Source: Candidatus Poribacteria bacterium
Lineage (GTDB): Bacteria; Poribacteria; WGA-4E; WGA-3G
Length of the DNA: 64,000 bases
NCBI GenBank assembly: GCA_965232545.1
Contig: OZ246979.1
Location: 4,002,481 to 4,066,480, forward strand
Direction: 5' to 3'
Within the stretch, counting starts at the first letter, position 1. Every line of letters begins with the position of its first letter. The position numbers and the translations under genes were made by a program. Under the pieces are notes generated by a model that was given only the letters and a program-made list of their open reading frames with translations, was not told the DNA's origin and did not search any database. Positions 593 to 14,631 of the stretch are shown in pieces.

Positions 593-1534
593 TTAGGTAA
601 GATCCCAGATGAGTACAGTGTGATCGTCGCTTCCGCTGGCGAGGACACTTCCATTCGGAGAATACGCGACATTCCTGACGCTGCCTGTATGTCCTGTGAG
701 CGTTCGTGTAGGAGGGGTTTGTAACCCCGATTTGATCACTTCCTCGATATCCCATAAACGAATTGTGTTGTCATTCCCGCCACTTGCGACGCTTTTGCCA
801 TCAGGTGCGTAAGCGACACCCCAGACATAACCGGCATGTCCTGTCAGTGTCGTTAGCAATTTCCTTGAGTCTGTATTCCACAACCGAACTGTGCCATCAA
901 TACTTCCGCTCACAAGAACTGCTCCATCGGGTGAATAAGCGATCGAATCGACAATATGTGTATGTCCCTTGAGTGTCGCTTTGTGCCTTCCGGTAGTAGC
1001 ATCCCACAATTCCACTGTGTCGTCTCCGGTTCCAGCGGCGAGGGTGCTTCCGTCTGGGGAATATTTAACACATCTGATAGAGTCTGCGCGCCCTGTGAGT
1101 GTATTTTTAGCCTCTCCTGTGCTGGTATCCCATAACCGCACGGTCCCATCAGGGCTTCCACTTGCGACGGTGGCACCGTCCACGGAATATGCAACACTCC
1201 TAACAGCGTCTGTATGTCCGACGAGCGTTGCTGTCGGAGATCCAACGGTCGCGTCCCATAAAACCACCGTATTGTCTGTACTCCCGCTGGCAATTGCACT
1301 CCCATCGGGAGAATACGCGACGCATCTGACGTATTCGTTGTGCTCAACGAGGAGGTTAAGTCCGAGACCGCTGTCCACATCATAGACCCAAACTCCGATG
1401 TCACAGGCGACTGCAAGTTGCGTTCCATCCGGTGAAAATGCTATATCTCCGGTTAAGTTTCCTTGGTCGAGGCGTACTATGACACCTTCGGGTAGATTCG
1501 ATTGTGAGTCTGTCTGAGCGTTTAGAGTATCCAA
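593..1534 (-). CDS. WD40 repeat protein
   Basis: About 7 GH...V..VAYSPDG..LASGS.D.TV.LWD repeats. Confidence 0.95.
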   Translation of the reverse strand: MDTLNAQTDSQSNLPEGVIVRLDQGNLTGDIAFSPDGTQLAVACDIGVWVYDVDSGLGLNLLVEHNEYVRCVAYSPDGSAIASGSTDNTVVLWDATVGSPTATLVGHTDAVRSVAYSVDGATVASGSPDGTVRLWDTSTGEAKNTLTGRADSIRCVKYSPDGSTLAAGTGDDTVELWDATTGRHKATLKGHTHIVDSIAYSPDGAVLVSGSIDGTVRLWNTDSRKLLTTLTGHAGYVWGVAYAPDGKSVASGGNDNTIRLWDIEEVIKSGLQTPPTRTLTGHTGSVRNVAYSPNGSVLASGSDDHTVLIWDLT

Positions 1535-1737: not shown

Positions 1738-2592
1738 TTAATGGCTATTCTTTAGTCGTCCCCATACGATTGGCAGCTTACCACCAGCGGAAACCTCTGC
1801 GTATTCCGATTCACTTGCCAACCAATTAATGACGTTTTCTGTAAGTTTCTGTATTTGATCAATATCCTTGTTGTTCTTGTGATAATTCGGGAGTCGCCAG
1901 TTCATGTTGAACACCTTACCGTCTCCAGCTTCCCAATAACCGAACGCTGCAATCCTATCCGTGTAATTGGTGCCCCCCTCCCAAGCATGCGCAAGCGTCG
2001 TAAAATTCTTCCAAATCGTGTCGAAATAGTCACCACTTACTGGATACCCAGTTGAATTGACCTGAATCCAATCCTCGACCTGGGGTGTTTTTCCATCGAC
2101 ATTCTTAAGTCCGTCTACCAACCCGAGTGCCAGTGTCTCTTTCAAGACGATAATACCGACATTACTTCCATCGTTTTCAACGGGTCCAAATGCGCGGGGT
2201 TGCGCGTTTTCTAATCCCAACGGCGTAGCATACCGGATAGCTGCACCTGTCAAGAGCACCGCGCCGCCGCTTTCAGCGTAGTCTAAGAACGCATCAAGTT
2301 CTGCGCCAGATAATCCCCCCGGATCGGCATCGCCATCATGCCACCAGATAACCCCAAACTGCTTGAATGTCTCACTTTTCAAATCAGCCTTCGCGAGTTG
2401 CTCTGTTTTAAAGGTCTTTTCAGCAAACTCCAATGCAGGTGAAGTAAAGTTACCCTTGTCGCCGAGGTAGATGAACCCGACTTCCACCGCCGCGCCACTA
2501 ACACTTATACCACAAACGAGAAGAAATGCCAAACAAAATACGATGTGGCTTACAAGTTTCGCCAAATCTTGCCATTTAAAAGTCCGTTCCAT
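1738..2592 (-). CDS. Secreted protein with GKLPIVWGRLK C-terminal tail (possibly glutamine amidotransferase-like fold)
   Basis: RBS AAGGAG before ATG 2592, signal peptide, tail motif shared with 58095..58880. Confidence 0.8.
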   Translation of the reverse strand: MERTFKWQDLAKLVSHIVFCLAFLLVCGISVSGAAVEVGFIYLGDKGNFTSPALEFAEKTFKTEQLAKADLKSETFKQFGVIWWHDGDADPGGLSGAELDAFLDYAESGGAVLLTGAAIRYATPLGLENAQPRAFGPVENDGSNVGIIVLKETLALGLVDGLKNVDGKTPQVEDWIQVNSTGYPVSGDYFDTIWKNFTTLAHAWEGGTNYTDRIAAFGYWEAGDGKVFNMNWRLPNYHKNNKDIDQIQKLTENVINWLASESEYAEVSAGGKLPIVWGRLKNSH

Positions 2593-2658
2593 GATGCTCC
2601 TTATATGTTTACACGAAGTGGCGCGCGGATGATTATCCCTACTGATAACATTCTTCAA

Positions 2659-3215: not shown

Positions 3216-4007
3216 CTATAAAGACAAGTCTGAGTCCTTATAGCACTCACGAAGCCGTTTATTGCCCGCTTGCACAAAACTCGGTTCAATCTCAAATCCG
3301 ATGAAATCTCGCTGATGCCGCTTACACACCACAGGACAGGTGCCAACTCCCACAAATGGATCCAGAACCAAATCCCCCGGTAATGAACTCGCTAATACGA
3401 TCCGCTCAATGAGTTTCTCCGGTTTCTGGATCGTGTTAAGGGTTTTTCTACTCACTAACTCTTTAGATTTGTAGGTTAATTGCTTTATATCGCCCCAGAC
3501 ATCGCCAGGATTCTTTCCTTTCGGATTGTATTTCGTCTTGCCAAATTTACCGTTCGTTACGGATGGTACATTTTCGCACCGACTCCGATGCTCTAATTCA
3601 ACAAGTTGCGCGACTCTGATAGCATCTAAGTTGTAGCACCGCGGCTTTTTGCCCTTGATGAAGTAACAGATAATATCGTGGTTATTAGTGTAACTAATTC
3701 GTCCCTGGGCAAGTCGACTCGGTTGATACCATACGATCTTTGAACGAAGATTTAAGTATTCTCGATAGTCTATGAAGTCGATGCAGTCCGGTTTTCCAAA
3801 CAGATAGAGCGCGCCTCCATCCTTCAGTTTCGGTGCGAAATCTTTGATAAGCGTGAAGTTGTATTCCTGAATTGAGGAAATCTCGTCCCACGAGTTCTCC
3901 GTTACACCATACGGTCCATCACACACAATCAGGTCCACTGAAGCGTCTTTTACCGCTTTCAGCAGCGTAAACGTATCGCCGCAATGGATGGTGTTCCGCT
4001 CAAGCAT
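3216..4007 (-). CDS. Orphan site-specific DNA methyltransferase (N4-C/N6-A, beta class)
   Basis: DGPY catalytic motif first, QKPEKL, then VLDPFVGVGT SAM motif; start placed at ATG 4007 (MLERNTIH); no adjacent endonuclease. Confidence 0.9.
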   Translation of the reverse strand: MLERNTIHCGDTFTLLKAVKDASVDLIVCDGPYGVTENSWDEISSIQEYNFTLIKDFAPKLKDGGALYLFGKPDCIDFIDYREYLNLRSKIVWYQPSRLAQGRISYTNNHDIICYFIKGKKPRCYNLDAIRVAQLVELEHRSRCENVPSVTNGKFGKTKYNPKGKNPGDVWGDIKQLTYKSKELVSRKTLNTIQKPEKLIERIVLASSLPGDLVLDPFVGVGTCPVVCKRHQRDFIGFEIEPSFVQAGNKRLRECYKDSDLSL

Positions 4008-4021
4008 AATTCCGTTTTGTC

Positions 4022-4114
4022 TCAATCTTTGTAGGCGTGGTGTATTGCCTTTCCGGCGACTATTCCAAGTCCTGTGATAAACACTACGAGTGTCAAAATT
4101 GCGACCCATTCCAT
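4022..4114 (-). CDS. 30-aa single-TM small protein MEWVAILTLVVFITGLGIVAGKAIHHAYKD
   Basis: AAGGA RBS, fills the sulfatase-MTase gap, one hydrophobic helix; below the ORF-track cutoff. Confidence 0.55.
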   Translation of the reverse strand: MEWVAILTLVVFITGLGIVAGKAIHHAYKD

Positions 4115-4133: not shown

Positions 4134-5582
4134 TTACATCGGTCCCACGCGTCGCGATCCTCTGTCCATGGCAAGCATGGATGCATCAAAACTCTGTTTT
4201 AGAAGTTCAAATTTGACCCCTTGTTTCGCATCGACATGCCAGAGATTTTCAAACTCGTCTGGGTCATTAATGAGGTCGTAGAGTTCACCCGCTTCGTGTC
4301 CGTGATAAACTACTAATTTGTAACGTTCATTTCGGTACATTGTTGCGAAAGTGTGATCCGGCAGGTCCACAGCGTCGTAATACTCGCATCGGACGAAATC
4401 GCGGTGATGGTTCGGATCCGCTTCACCGCGGAGAAGAGGCAGGAGGGATTTGCCGTGCATCTCGTCGGGGACTGTTAAGCCTGCCAATTCCAAGAGCGTT
4501 GGTGCTTTGTCAACGAGTTCGACAAGCGCGTCACTCTTAAGTCCGTTCGCAAACTGCGTCTGCCATGAGAAAATCAGCGGTACCCTGACCAAGCCTTCGT
4601 AAAACCTACAACCCTTTTGGATGAGTCCATGGTCGCCGAGTGTCTCTCCATGGTCACTCGTAAAAATGATGACGGTGTTTTCCCGTTGTCCTGTTTCGTC
4701 AAGCGTTTCAAGGATCCTGCCCAATTGCTCGTCAATCAGTTGAATCATCGCGTAATAGGCGGCTATAAGTGTTTTGGCATCTCTTGCCCCGACTGCCTCT
4801 GCTTCTTGACGCGGGGTCTGCGGTAAGATTGGACTCCGAATGTCCAGTTCATCGGGGGTACGTACTTTGGATTGAAAATCGACCGTTTGTAGTCGGGTCT
4901 GCTGTTCGAGATCGCTGCTTCGGAAAAGTGGCTCTGGCATTTCTGCCGGATTATATTGGTCTCGGTGTGTTTGTGGTGGATTGAAAGGCGGATGCGGGTC
5001 GTAGATATTGACACTCGCGAGCCACGGGCAATCTCGGTCTTCGCGAATGAACTCAATCGTCTTTTCCGCGCACCATGTCGTCTGATGCAACTCCGCTGGA
5101 ACGCCTTCTCGATTCTGGTTCAACTCACCTAAAATATACCCCTGCGTACGGACCCAATCAGCGTAGTCATGTCCGTGTTCCCAGTCATCGCGTGGCGCAT
5201 GACTGTATTGCCAGTAACGGTAACCGTCGTTTACGCGTGGTTCCACCCGACGGTAAGCACTCGCAAGATGGAGTTTGCCAATCAGTCCGCAATCATAACC
5301 GATGTCTGCGAGGGTACGCGTTACAAGCGGATATGCCTCTGGAAAAAAGTCGTTCCCGTTGCGAATCGCGTGTGTTGCGTTTGGGTACATGCCTGTGAGA
5401 AAACTCGCTCGACTCGGCGTACAGATGGGACTTTGACAATAGGCATGTGTAAATGCAACACCTTCCGTCACTAAATTGTCGATGTTCGGTGTTGACACAT
5501 ACGGGTTACCTAATGCGCCAATTGTGTCGTAACGCTGCTGATCTGTGCAAACCCAGAGTATATTGGGTGCCTTAACAGCCAT
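4134..5582 (-). CDS. Sulfatase (formylglycine type)
   Basis: PNILWVCTDQQR, CTPSRASFLTG, GKLHL, SDHG motifs. Confidence 0.95.
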   Translation of the reverse strand: MAVKAPNILWVCTDQQRYDTIGALGNPYVSTPNIDNLVTEGVAFTHAYCQSPICTPSRASFLTGMYPNATHAIRNGNDFFPEAYPLVTRTLADIGYDCGLIGKLHLASAYRRVEPRVNDGYRYWQYSHAPRDDWEHGHDYADWVRTQGYILGELNQNREGVPAELHQTTWCAEKTIEFIREDRDCPWLASVNIYDPHPPFNPPQTHRDQYNPAEMPEPLFRSSDLEQQTRLQTVDFQSKVRTPDELDIRSPILPQTPRQEAEAVGARDAKTLIAAYYAMIQLIDEQLGRILETLDETGQRENTVIIFTSDHGETLGDHGLIQKGCRFYEGLVRVPLIFSWQTQFANGLKSDALVELVDKAPTLLELAGLTVPDEMHGKSLLPLLRGEADPNHHRDFVRCEYYDAVDLPDHTFATMYRNERYKLVVYHGHEAGELYDLINDPDEFENLWHVDAKQGVKFELLKQSFDASMLAMDRGSRRVGPM

Positions 5583-5603
5583 ACATTAGCCTCTTCACGC
5601 GTA

Positions 5604-7202
5604 CTATTTAGGTTTCGCGCTAAATCCGGTCTCTTTAACGAGGGTCGCGAGGGCATCTGCAGTAACAGTGTTCTTCCGAACTTTAATGATGGCTTGATCG
5701 GGGAGAGAAACCTCGACACTGATAACGCTCTGGTGTTGTGTAAGTGCATCCTGCACTTTAGCGACGCAAGCCCCTCACGTCATGCCTGTCACTACGAGAG
5801 CGACCTCCTCGCTTCCCGCCGGTTCAATCGGTACAGACATAAATGCATTCAGGAGTTTACCGGTGGCGGTATCAAATATCCGAATCTTTCCGTCAAAACC
5901 GCCTGTGGCGAGTTGTGTGCCATTTGGATGGAACGACACTGAGAAAACACCAACCGCATCGCCTTGCATACTTGCTAAACGCGTTCCATCTTCCGTGTTG
6001 TAGATACGTGCTTCACCGCCTGTGCTACCAGTCGCGAACCGACTACCATCTGCTGAAAACGCGACACCTTCAATGGTACCCGACTGTGCTTCGTATGCTT
6101 GGATGAGATTAAAGTCCGTATTACCTACATCTCTCCGTATTTCACGAAAGATTTTGTAGAGACGTGGAATACGGTCTTCACCGCCATTGAGAACCCAGTC
6201 TTCAGTCGGGTGCCGTGCGATGGTGTTGATTTCTCCATAACCCTTGTTGCTGGAGTTGATGTCGTCAACGAAAGAGCCTGTGTCTACTTCAACCAATTTG
6301 AGGGCAGTATCCCGTCCAGCACTCACGAAATGAGAGCCCTCCGTAGAAAACACCGTTCCGAACACCCAATCGCTGTGGTTATCAAATTTAATCAGCTCTT
6401 TCTCGCCTTCAACGGACAGCACGCGTACAGTTTGGTCTGAACATCCGAAAGCGACACGACTCGCGTCTGGTGAGAAAGAGAGCCCATATACAGTGTCATA
6501 ACTGGAACGTATCGCTTTGATGAGCGAATTTGTTGCTGTATCCCATAACTGCACTTCGCCGAATTGCGCTGGCGACCCACCTGCCATGCCTAAAATTTTT
6601 CCATCTGCCGTATACGTCAGCGATTCTATGCGATGTGCTTTGCCTACCAGTCTTGCTTTGAGTTGAAAGCTCGTTGTATCGTACAACAAAATTTCACGGA
6701 ATCCTGACACCGCGAGTGTGCTACCATCAGGCGAATATGCCAGGGCGGTAACCACCGGAGGCACTGTGTAAATCGGGTAGTTTCCTTCATCCATATCGTC
6801 GACTTCATCCGGCGTGTCGTCGTGCGCGCCTTCGAGAATCCAACGTCGAAATAATTCGACCTCTTCGGTTGAAAGCGGTTCTTGGTTCTGTGGCATTGCC
6901 GGTTCATCGCCGGAGATAAGTTCAATCAGGAGGCTTTCATCCGGTTCCTCAGGGACAATCGCATCACCCGCCATTCCACCTCGCTTGAGATCTGCGTAGG
7001 TTGTTACAATCAGGTCACCATTCGGATCACCGGGGTGATGGCATCCTTGACAACTCCGTTTGAGGAGTGGGACGATCTCGGAATGGTAACTAACGGCTGA
7101 ATCTGTAGCGTGCTGGTCTGCTATTCCGTACGGACTCAATGCTACAAAACAGAGCAGATACACCCCTAAATAAATTGCAAACCTTGGTCGTGATACTTTC
7201 AT
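5604..7202 (-). CDS. Secreted planctomycete-type cytochrome c + WD40 + HMA protein with probable selenocysteine (UGA 5775-5777), 532 aa
   Basis: CQGCH heme motif, WD40 repeats, VTGMT-TGA-GAC then 56 more codons of HMA-like sequence to TAG at 5604. Confidence 0.85.
5742..5758 (-). promoter_or_regulatory. Putative bacterial SECIS hairpin
   Basis: AAGUGCA-GGA-UGCACUU, beginning 17 nt 3' of the UGA, G-led apical loop. Confidence 0.65.
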
Positions 7203-8069: not shown

Positions 8070-8981
8070 GTGTTAATATTCAAACAACTGATACTTGGTT
8101 TACTCCTACCGGCTATTGTTACCGGCGGAATCCTTGTGTTTGCCAAAGCTTTGGCTTCTAAAGGAGAGGGAGAGAGCACTGGAAGGGAAACCGGTATATC
8201 ATCGGAATGGCTCATCGCTGTCGCATTGGGTGCTGGATACATCGTTGGATATATCGGTTTAGAGGGTTTGCCTCCTTTCCCACCCCGTGAGGGTGTCCAT
8301 TGGCTCTGCTATCTCGCTATTCTTGGGGTAATTCTTGGGTGTTTTTGGAATTTTTCACTTTGGGGACGCTTGTTGGCTCAAGTGGTGCTCTCGATTGTTA
8401 TACCACGGCTCCTTCTGAATTCGGTATTTAAGTATACATGGGGACAACTTGAAGGCGTTATCTGGTGGGTATGTCTCGCCGTTGTGATTTTTATCTTTTG
8501 GAATCTCGTCCAGCAGAGTTTCACTCTCTGGTTTCCGTCTGGTGCTTCGAGTCCATTTGTATATTTTGGACTTTCTGGCGGTACTGCCTTAGTCCTTGCT
8601 GTCTCCGGTACGCTGCGGTTAGCGCAACACGGTGGTATTCTGGTAGCGATTTTTGTGGCGAGTTGGATTGTTACGCTCGTTCTACAGCGGCATTCCAGTA
8701 GTTGGCGCGTCTTTCCACTCAGCGCATCGCCGGTTGTGACACTCCTACTTGCGGGGATCTGGATGAACGGCTATTTTTTTGAAGAGGTTCCGGCGGCAAG
8801 TGCTATTTTGTTAGCGATCTCACTCTTTTTAGCACCAATCGGGCGGATAGGGGCGATTCAGAGACTTGGTGCGCGGCGTTCTGTGCTTGTCCAGATAGCA
8901 GTCATCGCGCTGCCCGTCGTTATTGCAATCGGTGTGGCTATCGCACGTTCCGGTCTTTTTGGTGACAACAGCGGTTATTAA
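8070..8981 (+). CDS. Multi-pass membrane protein
   Basis: About 9-10 hydrophobic helices; operonic with yceI. Confidence 0.85.
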   Translation: MLIFKQLILGLLLPAIVTGGILVFAKALASKGEGESTGRETGISSEWLIAVALGAGYIVGYIGLEGLPPFPPREGVHWLCYLAILGVILGCFWNFSLWGRLLAQVVLSIVIPRLLLNSVFKYTWGQLEGVIWWVCLAVVIFIFWNLVQQSFTLWFPSGASSPFVYFGLSGGTALVLAVSGTLRLAQHGGILVAIFVASWIVTLVLQRHSSSWRVFPLSASPVVTLLLAGIWMNGYFFEEVPAASAILLAISLFLAPIGRIGAIQRLGARRSVLVQIAVIALPVVIAIGVAIARSGLFGDNSGY

Positions 8982-9516: not shown

Positions 9517-12500
9517 ATGAGTTTGGCACGTAATCTGACCCGTTTTGGCGTGTATTATAAGTCAAAACTTGCTGTTAATAGTTTTGTCATGGTACTTCTC
9601 TTCTTTGGCATCTTGTTCCTTTTTAACGGTTGTGTCAAGATGGAGGCAACTCGGAAGGCGGATTGGGAGACACACTTCACCGATCTACACTTCGTCAATC
9701 ATAAACAGGGATGGGTTGTCGGACAGCAGGGGTTAATTATCCATACTGCAGATGGTGGTAAAACGTGGAAGCAACAAGAAGTCGACACAACAGGTGTTGG
9801 ATATCGCATGCCCGATGCCTCCTTAGACTTCAAAGCCGTCTACTTCACGAACGCAAACTACGGATGGGCAGTCGGCGATGAAGGGTTAATCGCAGTTACC
9901 GACGATGGTGGTAAACATTGGACCTTGCAACGAAGCGGCACTTCCGCGATGCTGCTTGATGTATATTTCGCCAATTCAAAAGAAGGCTGGATTGTTGGGG
10001 AAGATTCGGATGTCCTCTACACCAAGAATGGCGGAAAAGAGTGGAAACGGTACGAATACGTCAGTGAATTTATGCTCAACGGTGTCTGGTTTGTTAATGA
10101 TTCGATGGGATGGGTTGTCGGTACCCATGACAGGATTCTTCACACCAAAACCGGTGGTGAATCGTGGCGGGAACAGAGCAATCGCTTTGCGGGTGAGCGC
10201 GACCGGATGATTAATGACAATAAACAGGTCTTCTTCGTCAGCGATAATGAAGGCTGGATTGTCGGCAGTGATGGATCTATCTTCCATACAGCAAACGGCG
10301 GTATCAATTGGGGGCGTCAAGACAGTCGGATCCCGCTGATTAATGGGCATGTCCGGGATACTATCAACGGTATCCATTTCACAGATGAAAATTACGGGAT
10401 CGCCGTGGCAGATGTCGGCTTTATTACGCGTACCGAAGACGGCGGTGACAACTGGCAATTGATGGAAAGTGGAACCGAAAACAATTTGACAGGAATCCAG
10501 TTTACGACACCCACAGAGGCATGGGCAGTTGGGTGGTACGGTACTATTTTGCACACGACGGATGCGGGTGCGACGTGGGAGATGACCAGTGGAACGACTG
10601 CGAATGACCTGCAGAACGTCCAGTTTACGGATGCGAACCGCGCAATCGCAGTCGGCAAGCGTGGCACGATGGCGATGAGCAATGATGGCGGACAAACTTG
10701 GAGCGAAATTGAAACTGATATCTGGGACGGCATCTGGAATATCTATTTCGCAACCGATAAACACGGCTGGGCGGTTGGTGATCGAGGTCTTATTGTTCAT
10801 ACCAATGATGGTGGTGCGAATTGGGAGCGTCAGCGTAGTCCTTCTGCATTTGCACTCCGTGCTGTCCACTTTGTGAGTCCTCAAGTCGGCTGGATCGTCG
10901 GAGATCTCGGTAGTATCCTACACACAATTGATGGCGGCGAAACATGGCTTCAACAAACCGCCACGGGCGATTTTCTTTCTTTGATGCTGAAGGGTGTATT
11001 TTTTCTTGATGAAAAGAAGGGTTGGGCGATTGGATGGCCCGGTGTTTGCCTCACGACGGAAGATGGGGGTTTGACATGGAATCAGCAGACGACCGGCACT
11101 TTCAACGAACTCTATGCCGTTTACTTCGTAGATGAAAACATAGGGTGGATTGTCGGACAGTTTGGCGAAATTCTGCATACGAAAAACGGTGGAAAGCGTT
11201 GGAATTTCCAGCGCAGCGGCACGCAAGAGAATCTGAATAAACTCTATTTTGCTGGTACACAACACGGATTAATCGTCGGCGATAATGGTGTGATGCTTAC
11301 CACCGTCAACGGCGGCAAAAAGTGGGAAATGCAAGAGAGCGGCACCGGCAACGACCTGTATGGGTTGGCACTCTCACCCGATGGTGTCGTCGCTGTCGGT
11401 AAGGGCGGAATTGCGATGCGCTACTCTATTGAAAAGGCAGAATTGCCAGCAAAATTGCCACCTGTTGCTGAAGAACCAGAGGTAGTTACGGCTGAAGAGG
11501 AAACCCCTGTTGAACCCGTTGCCTACCATTGGGACATTATCCGTCAAGCAACTTGGCGAACGAATTTCGCCGATACCCATTTCGTGAATACGCAGAACGG
11601 ATGGGCGGTCGGTTCAGGCGGCGCAATTGCGCATACCACAGACGGCGGTAAGACGTGGTTGCCTCAACACAGTGGGGTCACTGAGGATCTGCAACAGGTC
11701 GAATTTTCTGACGAAAAGCATGGACGAATCCTTGGATCTGGTATCTTACTTCAGACCGAAAATGGTGGTGAAACGTGGAAACCGATTCTTCAGGCAACAA
11801 AGCAGAACCTGCCACGCGTCAGCACGATGTACTTCCTAAATGCCGAAGAGGGATGGCTCGGTGCCAGGATTGGACAGACCTTACATACGACCGATAGCGG
11901 CAAGACATGGAAGATCCAAAAGACTGGAACGACAACGGCAAACATTACTGATCTCCACTTTATCAATAGTCAGAAGGGGTGGGCGGTCACGCCGCAGCGT
12001 CGAGACGGTGGGTTTATTCTCCATACCGTTGATGGTGGCGATTACTGGAAAATTCAGGCAAAAACGAATCAGCCCGGTATTGCTGTCCATTTCGCTGACG
12101 AAAACCGCGGTTGGGTAATTCTCGGCAACGGCAACTCTTTGTTGACTGAGGACGGTGGTGAAACGTGGAGATTGCAGACCACGACACAGAGCACGCGCGG
12201 CTTACGGCGCATTACCTTCCGTTCGTATACCAATGCTTGGGGGCTCGGTAGTGATGGTGCTTATATCACCAGAGATCAAGGCGTGAATTGGGAACCTGTT
12301 CCTGTCGCTACAGGAGACGATATGTTCGCCTTATGGGAAACTGAGGCAGAGATGCTTGAAGAAGCCGAGCCAGAAGTGGAGGAAGACCCAACGGAGGAAG
12401 AGGAAGAAGAGGTCGCAGAGGGACCGACGCTAACGTATGACGAGACACCGGAGGAAATTCAAAATCGGTTGCGAGCACAGTGGCAACGTCCCGGACGTTT

Positions 12501-13632
12501 CGCTCCTGAAGGCGAGCTCCCGCCTAATCCCGAACGGGCGGCTCCTTCACCCGCACCTCGGCAGCAACAACCCCCTCCACCAGCACCTGAAGGACGCCGC
12601 AGACGCGGAGCACGCCGAGTCGCCAGCGTATATTTCTTGGATGCAGAGCACGCATGGGCTGTCGGAAGTGGCGGCAGTATCTACCACACCGCAGACGGTG
12701 GAGAGACATGGGAACGTCAACTCGGTGAACAGCAGCGTAATGACTTCCGAAAGGTCCTCTTCTACGATGACAAAAACGGTTGGATAGCAGGGGACAGCGG
12801 TGTCCTACTCGAAACCCAAGACGGTGGACAGACGTGGGAGACGCTTTCAAGTCGGACGCGTCAACGCCTCATCGGGGTACACTTTGCGAGTCTCGAACCT
12901 GAAAAATGGGGGTGGGCAATGCAACGTGACGGAACGGTCCTCTATACGACAGATGGCGCGATTTGGACAGCCGGGGATACGCCTGAGCAACCGCCTTTCA
13001 TGGAAGGCGATCCACCCGGTACATTCTCGCTGAACGATGTTGACTTCGGTAAGTTTTCTGAAGGTTGGGCAGTCGGTAGACTCGGATATATTATCCATAA
13101 CAAAGATGGCGGTCCCACGTGGACACCTCAGCGCACCACTGCAAATGACACACTTATGGATGTGGATATGAAATTCGCACCCCTCGGTTGGGCAGTTGGA
13201 CAGGGCGGGGTAACCCAACGCACCATCAACGGTGGTGAGTATTGGCGGATGCATGAAACCAAGTCGAATTACGATCTCAATGCGGTCTCATTTATCGCCA
13301 AGCGGACAGGATGGGCGACCGGTGAAGCCGGTATCGTCTTGAAGACGACCGATGGTGGTTTTACATGGACACCTAAATTGACCGGCGTTAACAAAACGCT
13401 CCACGGCATCATTGCACTCTCCGATCAGGAGATCTACGCCGTCGGTGAAGAAGGAACAATTGTTCGTTCAACTGATGGTGGTGAGACTTGGGAGCAGGAG
13501 CACACCGATATTGACAACAATCTTTATGTCATCACCCGTTCCAAAGATGGTAAGACGTTGTGGGTTGTTGGACAGTGGGGTGTTGTCCTGCGTCGGAAAT
13601 TAGAGACCCCCGTGCGGATGTCAATGCGATAA
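9517..13632 (+). CDS. YCF48/BNR (Asp-box) multi-propeller lipoprotein
   Basis: More than 20 GW.VG..G.I.HT.DGG.TW repeats; LFNGC lipobox-like. Confidence 0.93.
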   Translation: MSLARNLTRFGVYYKSKLAVNSFVMVLLFFGILFLFNGCVKMEATRKADWETHFTDLHFVNHKQGWVVGQQGLIIHTADGGKTWKQQEVDTTGVGYRMPDASLDFKAVYFTNANYGWAVGDEGLIAVTDDGGKHWTLQRSGTSAMLLDVYFANSKEGWIVGEDSDVLYTKNGGKEWKRYEYVSEFMLNGVWFVNDSMGWVVGTHDRILHTKTGGESWREQSNRFAGERDRMINDNKQVFFVSDNEGWIVGSDGSIFHTANGGINWGRQDSRIPLINGHVRDTINGIHFTDENYGIAVADVGFITRTEDGGDNWQLMESGTENNLTGIQFTTPTEAWAVGWYGTILHTTDAGATWEMTSGTTANDLQNVQFTDANRAIAVGKRGTMAMSNDGGQTWSEIETDIWDGIWNIYFATDKHGWAVGDRGLIVHTNDGGANWERQRSPSAFALRAVHFVSPQVGWIVGDLGSILHTIDGGETWLQQTATGDFLSLMLKGVFFLDEKKGWAIGWPGVCLTTEDGGLTWNQQTTGTFNELYAVYFVDENIGWIVGQFGEILHTKNGGKRWNFQRSGTQENLNKLYFAGTQHGLIVGDNGVMLTTVNGGKKWEMQESGTGNDLYGLALSPDGVVAVGKGGIAMRYSIEKAELPAKLPPVAEEPEVVTAEEETPVEPVAYHWDIIRQATWRTNFADTHFVNTQNGWAVGSGGAIAHTTDGGKTWLPQHSGVTEDLQQVEFSDEKHGRILGSGILLQTENGGETWKPILQATKQNLPRVSTMYFLNAEEGWLGARIGQTLHTTDSGKTWKIQKTGTTTANITDLHFINSQKGWAVTPQRRDGGFILHTVDGGDYWKIQAKTNQPGIAVHFADENRGWVILGNGNSLLTEDGGETWRLQTTTQSTRGLRRITFRSYTNAWGLGSDGAYITRDQGVNWEPVPVATGDDMFALWETEAEMLEEAEPEVEEDPTEEEEEEVAEGPTLTYDETPEEIQNRLRAQWQRPGRFAPEGELPPNPERAAPSPAPRQQQPPPPAPEGRRRRGARRVASVYFLDAEHAWAVGSGGSIYHTADGGETWERQLGEQQRNDFRKVLFYDDKNGWIAGDSGVLLETQDGGQTWETLSSRTRQRLIGVHFASLEPEKWGWAMQRDGTVLYTTDGAIWTAGDTPEQPPFMEGDPPGTFSLNDVDFGKFSEGWAVGRLGYIIHNKDGGPTWTPQRTTANDTLMDVDMKFAPLGWAVGQGGVTQRTINGGEYWRMHETKSNYDLNAVSFIAKRTGWATGEAGIVLKTTDGGFTWTPKLTGVNKTLHGIIALSDQEIYAVGEEGTIVRSTDGGETWEQEHTDIDNNLYVITRSKDGKTLWVVGQWGVVLRRKLETPVRMSMR

Positions 13633-13650: not shown

Positions 13651-14631
13651 ATGAAGTCAAAATCCAGTAAAGCATTGCTTATCTCTGTCCTATTGCACCT
13701 CGGTGTTGGGGTGCTCGGTCTTTTCTTTTGGTTTAGCACCAATCCACAGCGGAATGCTGACGCTATCAATGCCCTATTTGTCATCGAAGAAAAGCCGAAG
13801 GTCAGGCGCGTGACACCTCCGAAACGCACACGAGTCAGGCACAGAAGAACACGTGATGTCAGCCAACCACGACTGAAAATTCTCACGAGCAATCAACCTG
13901 CCAGCAACCGAGGGGTTGTCTCCGCAGCGGAACCCGCACCTTTTCAACCCTTCGATACCGAAGACGTCGGAGAACCTGTTGGACCCACCGCAACCCATGT
14001 CGAATTTGACGACACGCCACGTGTGCAAAGGGTCATCGAACGTCCTTTCAGAAAAGAGAAAAAAGCCAAAGCACGTCCCAAAAGCCGGTTAGTGAGGTTC
14101 ATTGAAGCGCAAGAGGGACCGCAGCGCATCGTCTACTGCATTGATCTCTCTACGAGTATGCAAAATCTGCCGCCCCGGAAACTCAAACGGATTATAGATC
14201 TCATGCGGAATTCGCTGACCTTCCTTGAACCCCACGATAGTTTCAATATCGTAGCGTTTAGTGCAGAACTCATCGTCTACCAAGAAGGCTTCGTCCCTGT
14301 AACCGAGCAGACAGTTGCCACATCGTCAAACTATCTCGCCGACATCCAATCCCAAATCCACACAAAAGGGACCGACCACGATATGCTATCGGCGTTGACC
14401 GAAATTGCCAAAACCGCACCTACTATCGTTGTTTTGTTTAGCGACGGCATTCCTACCACGATTTCGGGAACGGATCTCACGCTCGTTGGTCAGCACGCCG
14501 CAGGTAACGGACGCATCTTCGCGATGGGGATCGGAATGGCACCTAATTTCCCGGGTGCTGTGATGTTGAGACGCCTCTCGACCGTCAGTGAGGGAGATTT
14601 ATGGCTTGTTGACAGAGGTAGAAGTAGATAG
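13651..14631 (+). CDS. Membrane-anchored VWA domain protein
   Basis: N-terminal S.LLH helix; MIDAS DLSTSM; LFSDG. Confidence 0.85.
   Translation: MKSKSSKALLISVLLHLGVGVLGLFFWFSTNPQRNADAINALFVIEEKPKVRRVTPPKRTRVRHRRTRDVSQPRLKILTSNQPASNRGVVSAAEPAPFQPFDTEDVGEPVGPTATHVEFDDTPRVQRVIERPFRKEKKAKARPKSRLVRFIEAQEGPQRIVYCIDLSTSMQNLPPRKLKRIIDLMRNSLTFLEPHDSFNIVAFSAELIVYQEGFVPVTEQTVATSSNYLADIQSQIHTKGTDHDMLSALTEIAKTAPTIVVLFSDGIPTTISGTDLTLVGQHAAGNGRIFAMGIGMAPNFPGAVMLRRLSTVSEGDLWLVDRGRSR

Follow-up and report, generated by a model that had tools for sequence, protein, structure and literature searches.

The HMA domain (PF00403) of CopZ/Atx1-type chaperones, of MerP and of ATP7A/ATP7B carries its metal-binding loop, G-M-T-C-x-x-C, between strand 1 and helix 1. 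Versions with selenocysteine (Sec, U) in the metal motif are on record: the searchable selenoprotein tables of two reviews, published in 2026 and 2022, list a heavy-metal P-type ATPase with a UxxC motif and a "metal-binding protein", NF041115, with UxxU. The families NF041115 ("UxxU_metal_bind, metal-binding (seleno)protein") and NF045683 ("MerT/CopZ fusion-like heavy metal transport selenoprotein") both comprise small HMA/CopZ-like domains of this kind, and PMC1088965 describes selenoproteins that coordinate a metal, formate dehydrogenase aside, as rare in marine data. Here we analyse a gene from a window of 64,000 nucleotides of the genome of a sponge-associated bacterium of Candidatus Poribacteria (assembly GCA_965232545.1, contig OZ246979.1, positions 4,002,481 to 4,066,480), whose product shares with CopZ/Atx1, MerP and ATP7A/ATP7B the family, the predicted fold and the position of the loop, but differs from them in that the first cysteine (Cys) is replaced by a UGA-encoded residue and in that the HMA domain is tethered to a cytochrome c domain and a WD40 propeller. 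Our core claim, which we hold with high confidence, is that this UGA, codon 476, is decoded as Sec, so that a protein of full length, with its HMA-type domain, is made; we are less sure of the metal and of what the fusion is for.

On the minus strand of the window an open reading frame (ORF) at 5775-7202 specifies 475 residues ending in ...EEVALVVTGMT, followed by TGA at 5775-5777. Past this codon the frame continues as GACVAKVQDALTQHQ...GFSAKPK and stays open for 56 more codons up to a TAG at 5604-5606, which lies 21 nucleotides before the ATG of a sulfatase gene (4134-5582); translation with TGA read as U yields 532 residues with U476. The complete selenoprotein coding sequence of 532 codons plus TAG (5604..7202, minus strand) is matched by full-length orthologues with a single TGA in 110 of the 112 genomes of the window's family. 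The in-frame UGA (5775..5777, minus strand) aligns with the first Cys of solved copper-ATPase and CopZ domains, and with TGC or TGT in the Cys-form orthologues at loci L040 and L060. An earlier note, made from the letters of this DNA, had described the stop at GMT-TGA, the continuing frame and the TAG 21 nucleotides short of the sulfatase, and had placed the UGA on the first Cys of GMTCxxC; the former are all present where it put them, and the alignments bear out the latter.

The conservation of this arrangement was evaluated by a six-frame search of 176 genomes of the phylum, with E <= 1e-90 as the threshold for an orthologue. An orthologue is present in 133 genomes: the Sec form in 115, the Cys form in 9, and a form that lacks the HMA domain in another 9. 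The window's family (112 genomes, own included) contributes 110 matches, each with exactly one in-frame TGA, extending to residue 529 or beyond at 68-100% identity; the other five Sec forms are those of genomes G064, G027, G088, G036 and G030. The site was read directly in 50 excised orthologous loci, including 39 Sec-form orthologues (one with two sites) and 2 Cys forms. In the G-M-(T/M)-U column the TGA is shared by all 24 genus loci, counting the window's own, by each of the 10 loci drawn from four further genera of the family, and by the five genomes just named, which belong to two other families. Genomes G032 and G066 have TGC or TGT at this site, within GMTCGAC and GMTCDAC, and the remaining Cys forms are seven more genomes of the genus of G032 with a stop-free match through the C-terminus. 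The search for TGA/Cys-aligned homologues that the earlier note had called for thus returns 115 with TGA and 9 with Cys in one column. As TGA stands at the site in every independent assembly examined, a sequencing error, for which TGY at this position would have been the sign, is excluded. The nine HMA-less orthologues (three genomes of genus g7, G063, and G051 to G055) end just past the propeller. In G064 the orthologue (L059, G064:C1:395950-398688) has two tandem Sec-HMA domains, with U471 and U545 each encoded by its own TGA and each followed by its own hairpin, AAGUGC-AGGUC-GCACUC; this protein would hold two selenocysteines.

Database records present the gene differently. The best 120 homologues, named 'hypothetical protein' or 'WD40 repeat protein', are 439-494 residues long and cover at most 89% of the query, from which we conclude that these entries of about 475 residues have been cut at the UGA. 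The proteins on whose source names the assignment of the phylum to Candidatus Poribacteria rests are 74-92% identical. If the annotation were right, the TGA would be a true stop and the HMA-like stretch either a decaying remnant or a separate small gene, for which an ORF of 50 codons with a GTG start (5604-5756), in the same frame 3' of the TGA, might be offered as a candidate. This ORF would begin past the metal-binding motif, however, and the Cys-form orthologues are continuous proteins. Across genomes with as little as 55% overall identity the tail keeps its frame, its length and its protein sequence. Among 23 genus orthologues of full length, with one locus cut at its N-terminus set aside, mean column entropies at codon positions 1/2/3 are 0.212/0.193/0.780 for codons 477-532 versus 0.195/0.124/0.897 upstream of the UGA; the substitution pattern after the TGA stays that of coding sequence. 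The tandem arrangement in G064, where each HMA domain has both a TGA and a hairpin, also speaks against a stop, and we regard this explanation as extremely improbable. A separate search with residues 452-532 returned one protein (a P-type ATPase) among 255 candidates and did not recover the Cys-form orthologues; because it missed these known relatives, it says little about the spread of the domain outside the phylum.

The 532-residue protein comprises, in order, a signal peptide-like segment, a PSCyt1 cytochrome c domain with a CxxCH motif, a seven-bladed WD40 propeller and the C-terminal HMA domain. The putative signal segment (residues ~1-28; 7119..7202, minus strand) shows a basic n-region, a hydrophobic core and the ending ...GIA/DQ, and AlphaFold2 (AF2) predicts a helix at residues 5-22. 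The planctomycete-type PSCyt1 domain (residues 51-104; 6891..7052, minus strand) matches PF07635 with 41 bits against a cut-off of 22; its haem motif, C51-Q-G-C54-H55, lies at 7038-7052, and C51, C54, H55 and M103 are invariant in an alignment of 14 orthologues. A CxxCH haem c domain requires export for haem attachment. The propeller (residues ~150-455; 5838..6755, minus strand) is identified by Pfam WD40 and beta-propeller families (PF00400 at 104 bits), by AF2, whose predicted local distance difference test score (pLDDT) is mostly above 80 across it, and by Foldseek, whose top PDB matches are seven-bladed WD40 propellers with a template modelling score, normalised by target, of 0.88-0.92. 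Searched as a whole against PDB, the model retrieved generic WD40 propellers only and nothing on function.

The HMA domain, of ferredoxin-like fold (residues 464-531, motif G-M-T-U-G-A-C; 5610..5813, minus strand), is recognised by PF00403 with 33.7 bits against a cut-off of 24.8 when the 72-residue tail is scored with U read as C; a six-frame genome scan, which is unable to score a stop codon, gave the tail 23.9 bits, slightly under the same cut-off. The AF2 model, computed from the alignment of the 14 orthologues (mean pLDDT 71.4), predicts the beta-alpha-beta-beta-alpha-beta order at pLDDT 73-88, with strands at 464-472, 493-499, 503-509 and 528-531 and helices at 477-488 and 515-523; U476 falls in the loop that joins strand 1 to helix 1. 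The closest PDB sequences of the tail are the Cu(I)-binding domains of ATP7B, ATP7A, CopA and CopZ, followed by weaker matches to MerP and the N-terminal domain of MerA.

A candidate bacterial Sec insertion sequence (SECIS) hairpin, AAGUGCA-GGA-UGCACUU, is found at 5742..5758 (minus strand), that is at +17 to +33 after the UGA, both in the centroid structure and in the RNAalifold consensus. It is a hairpin of 17 nucleotides with a perfect stem of 7 base pairs, in a stretch of 76 nucleotides with a centroid energy of -7.4 kcal/mol, and its loop GG lies at 5750-5751 (+24/+25). According to PMC1088965, a bacterial SECIS is a stem-loop that follows directly on the UGA and has at least one G in its small apical loop, and the position of this hairpin and its GG-bearing loop agree with that wording. 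In the RNAalifold consensus of 29 sequences it is the only substantial helix, with no conserved lower stem and no bulged U. Third codon positions are invariant in 37 of the 521 degenerate codon columns of the 23 genus orthologues, and the sole run of three or more such columns, five consecutive ones at codons 482-486, coincides with the hairpin.

We compared 42 Sec sites, representing 37 distinct sequences, from the 39 orthologues (one with two sites) and from two small Sec-HMA paralogues of the own genome. Positions 27-28 of the loop are GG at 42 of 42 Sec sites and at neither of the two Cys sites, whose loops are GAA and AAC. The four core pairs are paired at all 42 Sec sites. The third loop base varies freely (A/G/C/U, with the encoded residue D/G/A/V). 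Pair 20-36 is A-U at 28 sites, G-U at 3, G-C at 2 and unpaired at 9, and pair 23-33 is U-A at 41 sites and U-G at one. As the closing A-U pair is A/C at three sites, the loop may in fact be one of five bases, A-G-G-N-Y. It is conservation, and not thermodynamics, that raises the hairpin above chance.

The genome, a single contig of 5.89 Mb, encodes the complete set of factors for Sec incorporation. A tRNA-Sec with a UCA anticodon scores 59.5 bits with Infernal against a gathering score of 47; it lies about 40 nucleotides downstream of the end of a 654-residue selB frame, on the same strand (G000:C1:413615-413883, L001/L012). The selA gene is found with 521 bits and selD with 358 bits (G000:C1:1020137-1021060, L013). 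The latter contains one TGA and is a selenoprotein gene itself, with U51 in K-C-A-G-U-A-S-K; a hairpin of its own, GCUC-CGGGU-GAGC, spans +13 to +25 after its UGA and bears a comparably small, G-rich loop (+17 to +21). Of the 176 genomes of the phylum 166 have the SelB wing domain, and in the genus with the Cys forms 20 of 20 do, so that the Cys forms do not reflect a loss of the Sec trait. Three further points of the earlier note can be settled here: its hairpin of 7 base pairs with a GGA loop, 17 nucleotides after the UGA, exists and is kept in the Sec forms with loss of the loop GG in the Cys forms; selA, selB, tRNA-Sec and selD, whose absence would have spoken against it, are all in the genome; and its reading of the domains as cytochrome c, WD40 and HMA is upheld by the Pfam scores given above.

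A variant code, in which TGA would specify Trp or Gly, has nothing for it beyond the open frame and was rejected as the least likely explanation of all. Of 31 long frames in the window 7 end in TGA, and no in-frame TGA occurs in six genes that Pfam confirms. Some orthologues of the very same gene end in TGA (L022, L060), and the residue aligned in homologues is Cys. TGA is otherwise an ordinary stop in this genome, and a scan of the window for further TGA read-through gave no candidate that looks coding. Taken by itself, the decoding of UGA476 as Sec is very probable.

Several observations have to be set against this interpretation. The 76-nucleotide fold is no better than that of shuffled sequences (z = -0.03; 86 of 200 shuffles were at least as stable), and Rfam, searched over 5600-5900 at E <= 10, returned three chance-level matches and not one SECIS family. 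The stem is nearly invariant, so covariation is thin: there is one compensatory change, A-U to G-C, in two sequences. Part of the nucleotide conservation of the hairpin is due to the conserved peptide K-V-Q-x-A-L. A weaker stem is kept in both Cys forms, and the loop GG alone separates Sec from Cys, in a comparison with just two Cys sequences. ARAGORN called no tRNA at the tRNA-Sec locus. In the AF2 model the PSCyt1 part has pLDDT below 50 and is unreliable. The HMA tail reaches the cut-off of no named CopZ, MerP or selenoprotein subfamily, with best scores of 45.0 versus 95, 39.0 versus 91 and 40.4 versus 85 bits for the CopZ families NF033794, NF033795 and NF047957, and 30.8 versus 92.55 bits for MerP (TIGR02052). 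The gene neighbours, in the genus and at six loci of other families, give no clue to the metal. Lastly, selenium in the protein is something that we infer, as we do its export, the attachment of haem, which metal is bound and why the domains are fused.

These data can be brought together in the following model. The gene very probably encodes one selenoprotein of 532 residues, which would be exported, and not a protein of 475 residues. SelB with Sec-tRNA(Sec) would recognise the minimal hairpin 16 nucleotides past UGA476, with its stem AAGUGC/GCACUU and a loop bearing the invariant GG, and would insert Sec at this codon, whereupon translation would run on through the C-terminal HMA domain and produce the metal loop G-M-T-U-G-A-C in place of G-M-T-C-x-x-C. 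The mature protein is probably periplasmic and would consist of a mono-haem PSCyt1 domain, the seven-bladed propeller and the Sec-HMA module. The selenolate-thiolate pair most likely binds a soft metal ion, either holding it or handing it on; the propeller would offer a platform for docking, and the haem would be a redox site for single electrons.

That the Sec-Cys pair binds a soft metal seems likely from its family membership. As to which metal, our best guess is Cu(I), a weak call prompted by the sequence neighbours of the domain; Hg(II), Cd or Ag are possible. Alternatively, the U-x-x-C pair could be a redox centre, a selenenylsulfide/selenol-thiol couple that exchanges electrons with the haem or with substrates. 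PMC1088965 indeed gives thiol-type oxidoreductases as most of the UxxC selenoproteins, and the domain is fused to a cytochrome c domain. Yet both the sequence and the predicted fold are those of a typical HMA domain, the solved structures closest to it are Cu(I) domains of P-type ATPases and CopZ, the full G-M-T-C-x-x-C context surrounds the pair, and there is no thioredoxin-like fold. We consider a redox centre quite unlikely, and metal binding is the function we prefer.

In bacterial selenoproteins termination and Sec insertion compete at the UGA. This raises the question of whether UGA476 acts as a partial switch, with 532 residues made when selenium is available and, when it is not, a stop at T475 leaving an HMA-less cytochrome-propeller protein, so that selenium supply would set the ratio of isoforms. 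In favor of this idea, the Sec sits in a C-terminal accessory domain, and termination would therefore leave the core intact; moreover, nine orthologues naturally end after the propeller, which implies that the cytochrome-propeller core can stand without the tail. Against it, the TGA, the hairpin and the coding HMA domain are strictly kept in 115 genomes, which shows selection on the full-length product but does not speak for selection on a switch. A switch is in our view unlikely, if somewhat less so than the redox centre, and production of the full-length selenoprotein is the better account.

To place the gene among the other HMA proteins of its bearer, we examined all five HMA matches of the own genome. 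Two have Cys: one is the N-terminus of a P-type ATPase, in a frame of 770 residues, and the other a CopZ-like protein, about 68 residues long, without a signal peptide. Three have TGA, namely the cytochrome c-WD40-HMA protein and two tandem small genes outside the window (G000:C1:5483818-5484511, minus strand, L048/L072). The latter, open frames of about 133 residues, have lipoprotein-like N-termini, the motif VTGMT-U-GACTSKVQDAL and a hairpin, GGUGCA-GGA-UGCAC, 17 nucleotides past the TGA, the same distance as in the main gene. The neighbours of this pair are unrelated (a multihaem cytochrome, iPGM, PhyH and a sulfatase), and the best NCBIfam match of a small paralogue is NF041115 at 62.5 bits against a cut-off of 95. 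In this genome, the HMA domains with export signals have Sec and those without have Cys.

We extended the survey to 41 genomes of the order, each at least 93% complete, and counted TGA by hand in the 150 HMA matches listed (two further matches were unlisted). Among the matches listed, 81 carry one TGA, and all 81 lie in open frames of 112-195 or 510-590 residues, with none in ATPase-sized frames (695-915 residues) or CopZ-sized frames (71-103 residues). Every one of the 41 genomes has at least one TGA-bearing HMA, and the genus with Cys in the large protein still keeps a small Sec-HMA gene. It is conceivable that the order follows a rule by which extracytoplasmic HMA domains use Sec and cytoplasmic ones Cys, amounting to a compartment-specific use of selenium in metal handling. 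The extracytoplasmic set may then comprise, in each genome, the cytochrome c-WD40-HMA protein together with one or two small HMA proteins that resemble lipoproteins, and the cytoplasmic set may comprise the P-type ATPase and the CopZ-like protein. Perhaps Sec suits the extracytoplasmic set in that a selenolate would keep its reactivity and its competence for metal under the oxidising conditions of the periplasm. As N-termini were checked in the window's genome only, we put this rule forward as a tentative hypothesis that is more likely to fail than to hold. If it is true, nature would provide in these organisms a system in which to study the preference for Sec over Cys, and selenium supply could decide whether the cytochrome-propeller protein has its metal-binding tail.

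With regard to gene neighborhoods, the sulfatase follows the gene in 23 of 23 genus loci, and a divergent YceI-like gene lies upstream in 18 of 23. Both neighbours are absent from the six loci of other families, where the downstream gene encodes a Big_2-PSCyt2 (DUF1549) protein or, for the HMA-less forms, a VWA protein. Contigs from RNA libraries of four studies, two of them labelled sponge metagenome, cover the gene, and some pieces bridge the UGA; they attest to presence in RNA libraries, which may include DNA, and not to translation. Elsewhere in the window, an N6/N4 DNA methylase gene (3216-4109, minus strand) is directly downstream of the sulfatase. The ORF at 8070-8981 (plus strand), downstream of the YceI-like gene, adjoins that gene in most genus loci; like the ORF at 1738-2658 (minus strand), also of about 300 residues, it has no Pfam match. 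A 1371-residue protein encoded at 9517-13632 (plus strand) consists almost entirely of BNR/PSII_BNR repeats (Ycf48-like, sortilin-like; 14 matched stretches) and is followed by a VWA-domain protein at 13651-14631. A separate WD40-only protein is encoded at 593-1534 (minus strand), and WD40 paralogues are very many in this genome, with 81 matches to the query.

Because the 120 best relatives are all cut at the UGA, the HMA domain is missing from the record, which means that a conserved domain has escaped notice in a candidate phylum known mainly from sponge metagenomes. Sec, Cys and HMA-less forms occur side by side in related genera, with the Sec machinery present throughout, and so let Sec be compared cleanly with Cys in a natural setting. 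A use of Sec that depends on the compartment, if it exists, reaches beyond this single gene.

Comparison with described systems shows which parts of this arrangement are shared and which are not. Like the SECIS of E. coli K-12 fdhF, the gene of formate dehydrogenase H (NC_000913.3), the Poribacteria hairpin is a coding-sequence hairpin 3' of the UGA with an apical core UGCA-GG..-UGCAC and a GG in its small loop; unlike it, the loop GG is at +24/+25 as against +19/+20 in fdhF, and neither a conserved lower stem nor a bulged U was found in it. Since the hairpin is minimal and resembles that of fdhF, it may be testable directly in E. coli. The planctomycete-type proteins with PF07635 have the same N-terminal PSCyt1 with CxxCH. 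PSCyt1 is usually the N-terminal module of large PSCyt2/PSD1 (DUF1549/DUF1553) proteins, whereas here it is followed by the WD40 propeller and Sec-HMA without PSCyt2/PSD1; in another family of the order a Big_2-PSCyt2 gene follows immediately on the orthologue.

The HMA domain of heavy-metal P-type ATPases is N-terminal and cytoplasmic. In the ATPase selenoprotein listed in the review tables the UxxC presumably lies in this domain, and what those tables give of it agrees with the present gene in having Sec on the first Cys of a UxxC metal motif and in standard bacterial UGA/SECIS recoding. That protein is a membrane pump, while here the HMA domain forms the C-terminal part of a cytochrome c-WD40 protein that is probably exported, and the P-type ATPase of the own genome, unlike the listed one, has Cys in its HMA domain. 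NF041115 differs in its motif, UxxU and not UxxC, and in score (40.9 bits for the tail versus a cut-off of 95); NF045683 differs in architecture, the Poribacteria protein having no MerT region and its tail scoring 15.8 bits versus 375. In its presumed way of working the tail resembles these domains, but it belongs to no named subfamily. The cytochrome c-WD40-HMA architecture is not in the searchable tables of the two reviews, nor do the terms PF00403, WD40 and Planctomyc occur in the accessible text of the 2026 one. Open-access full text yielded no description of a Poribacteria selenocysteine or HMA selenoprotein like this, an earlier listing, for example in a supplementary table, remaining possible. 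The earlier note had held that Sec-HMA domains were known and this architecture was not, and NF041115, NF045683 and what is searchable of the two tables agree with it. Sec-HMA domains are already known, and this gene is an unannotated further case with an unusual architecture.

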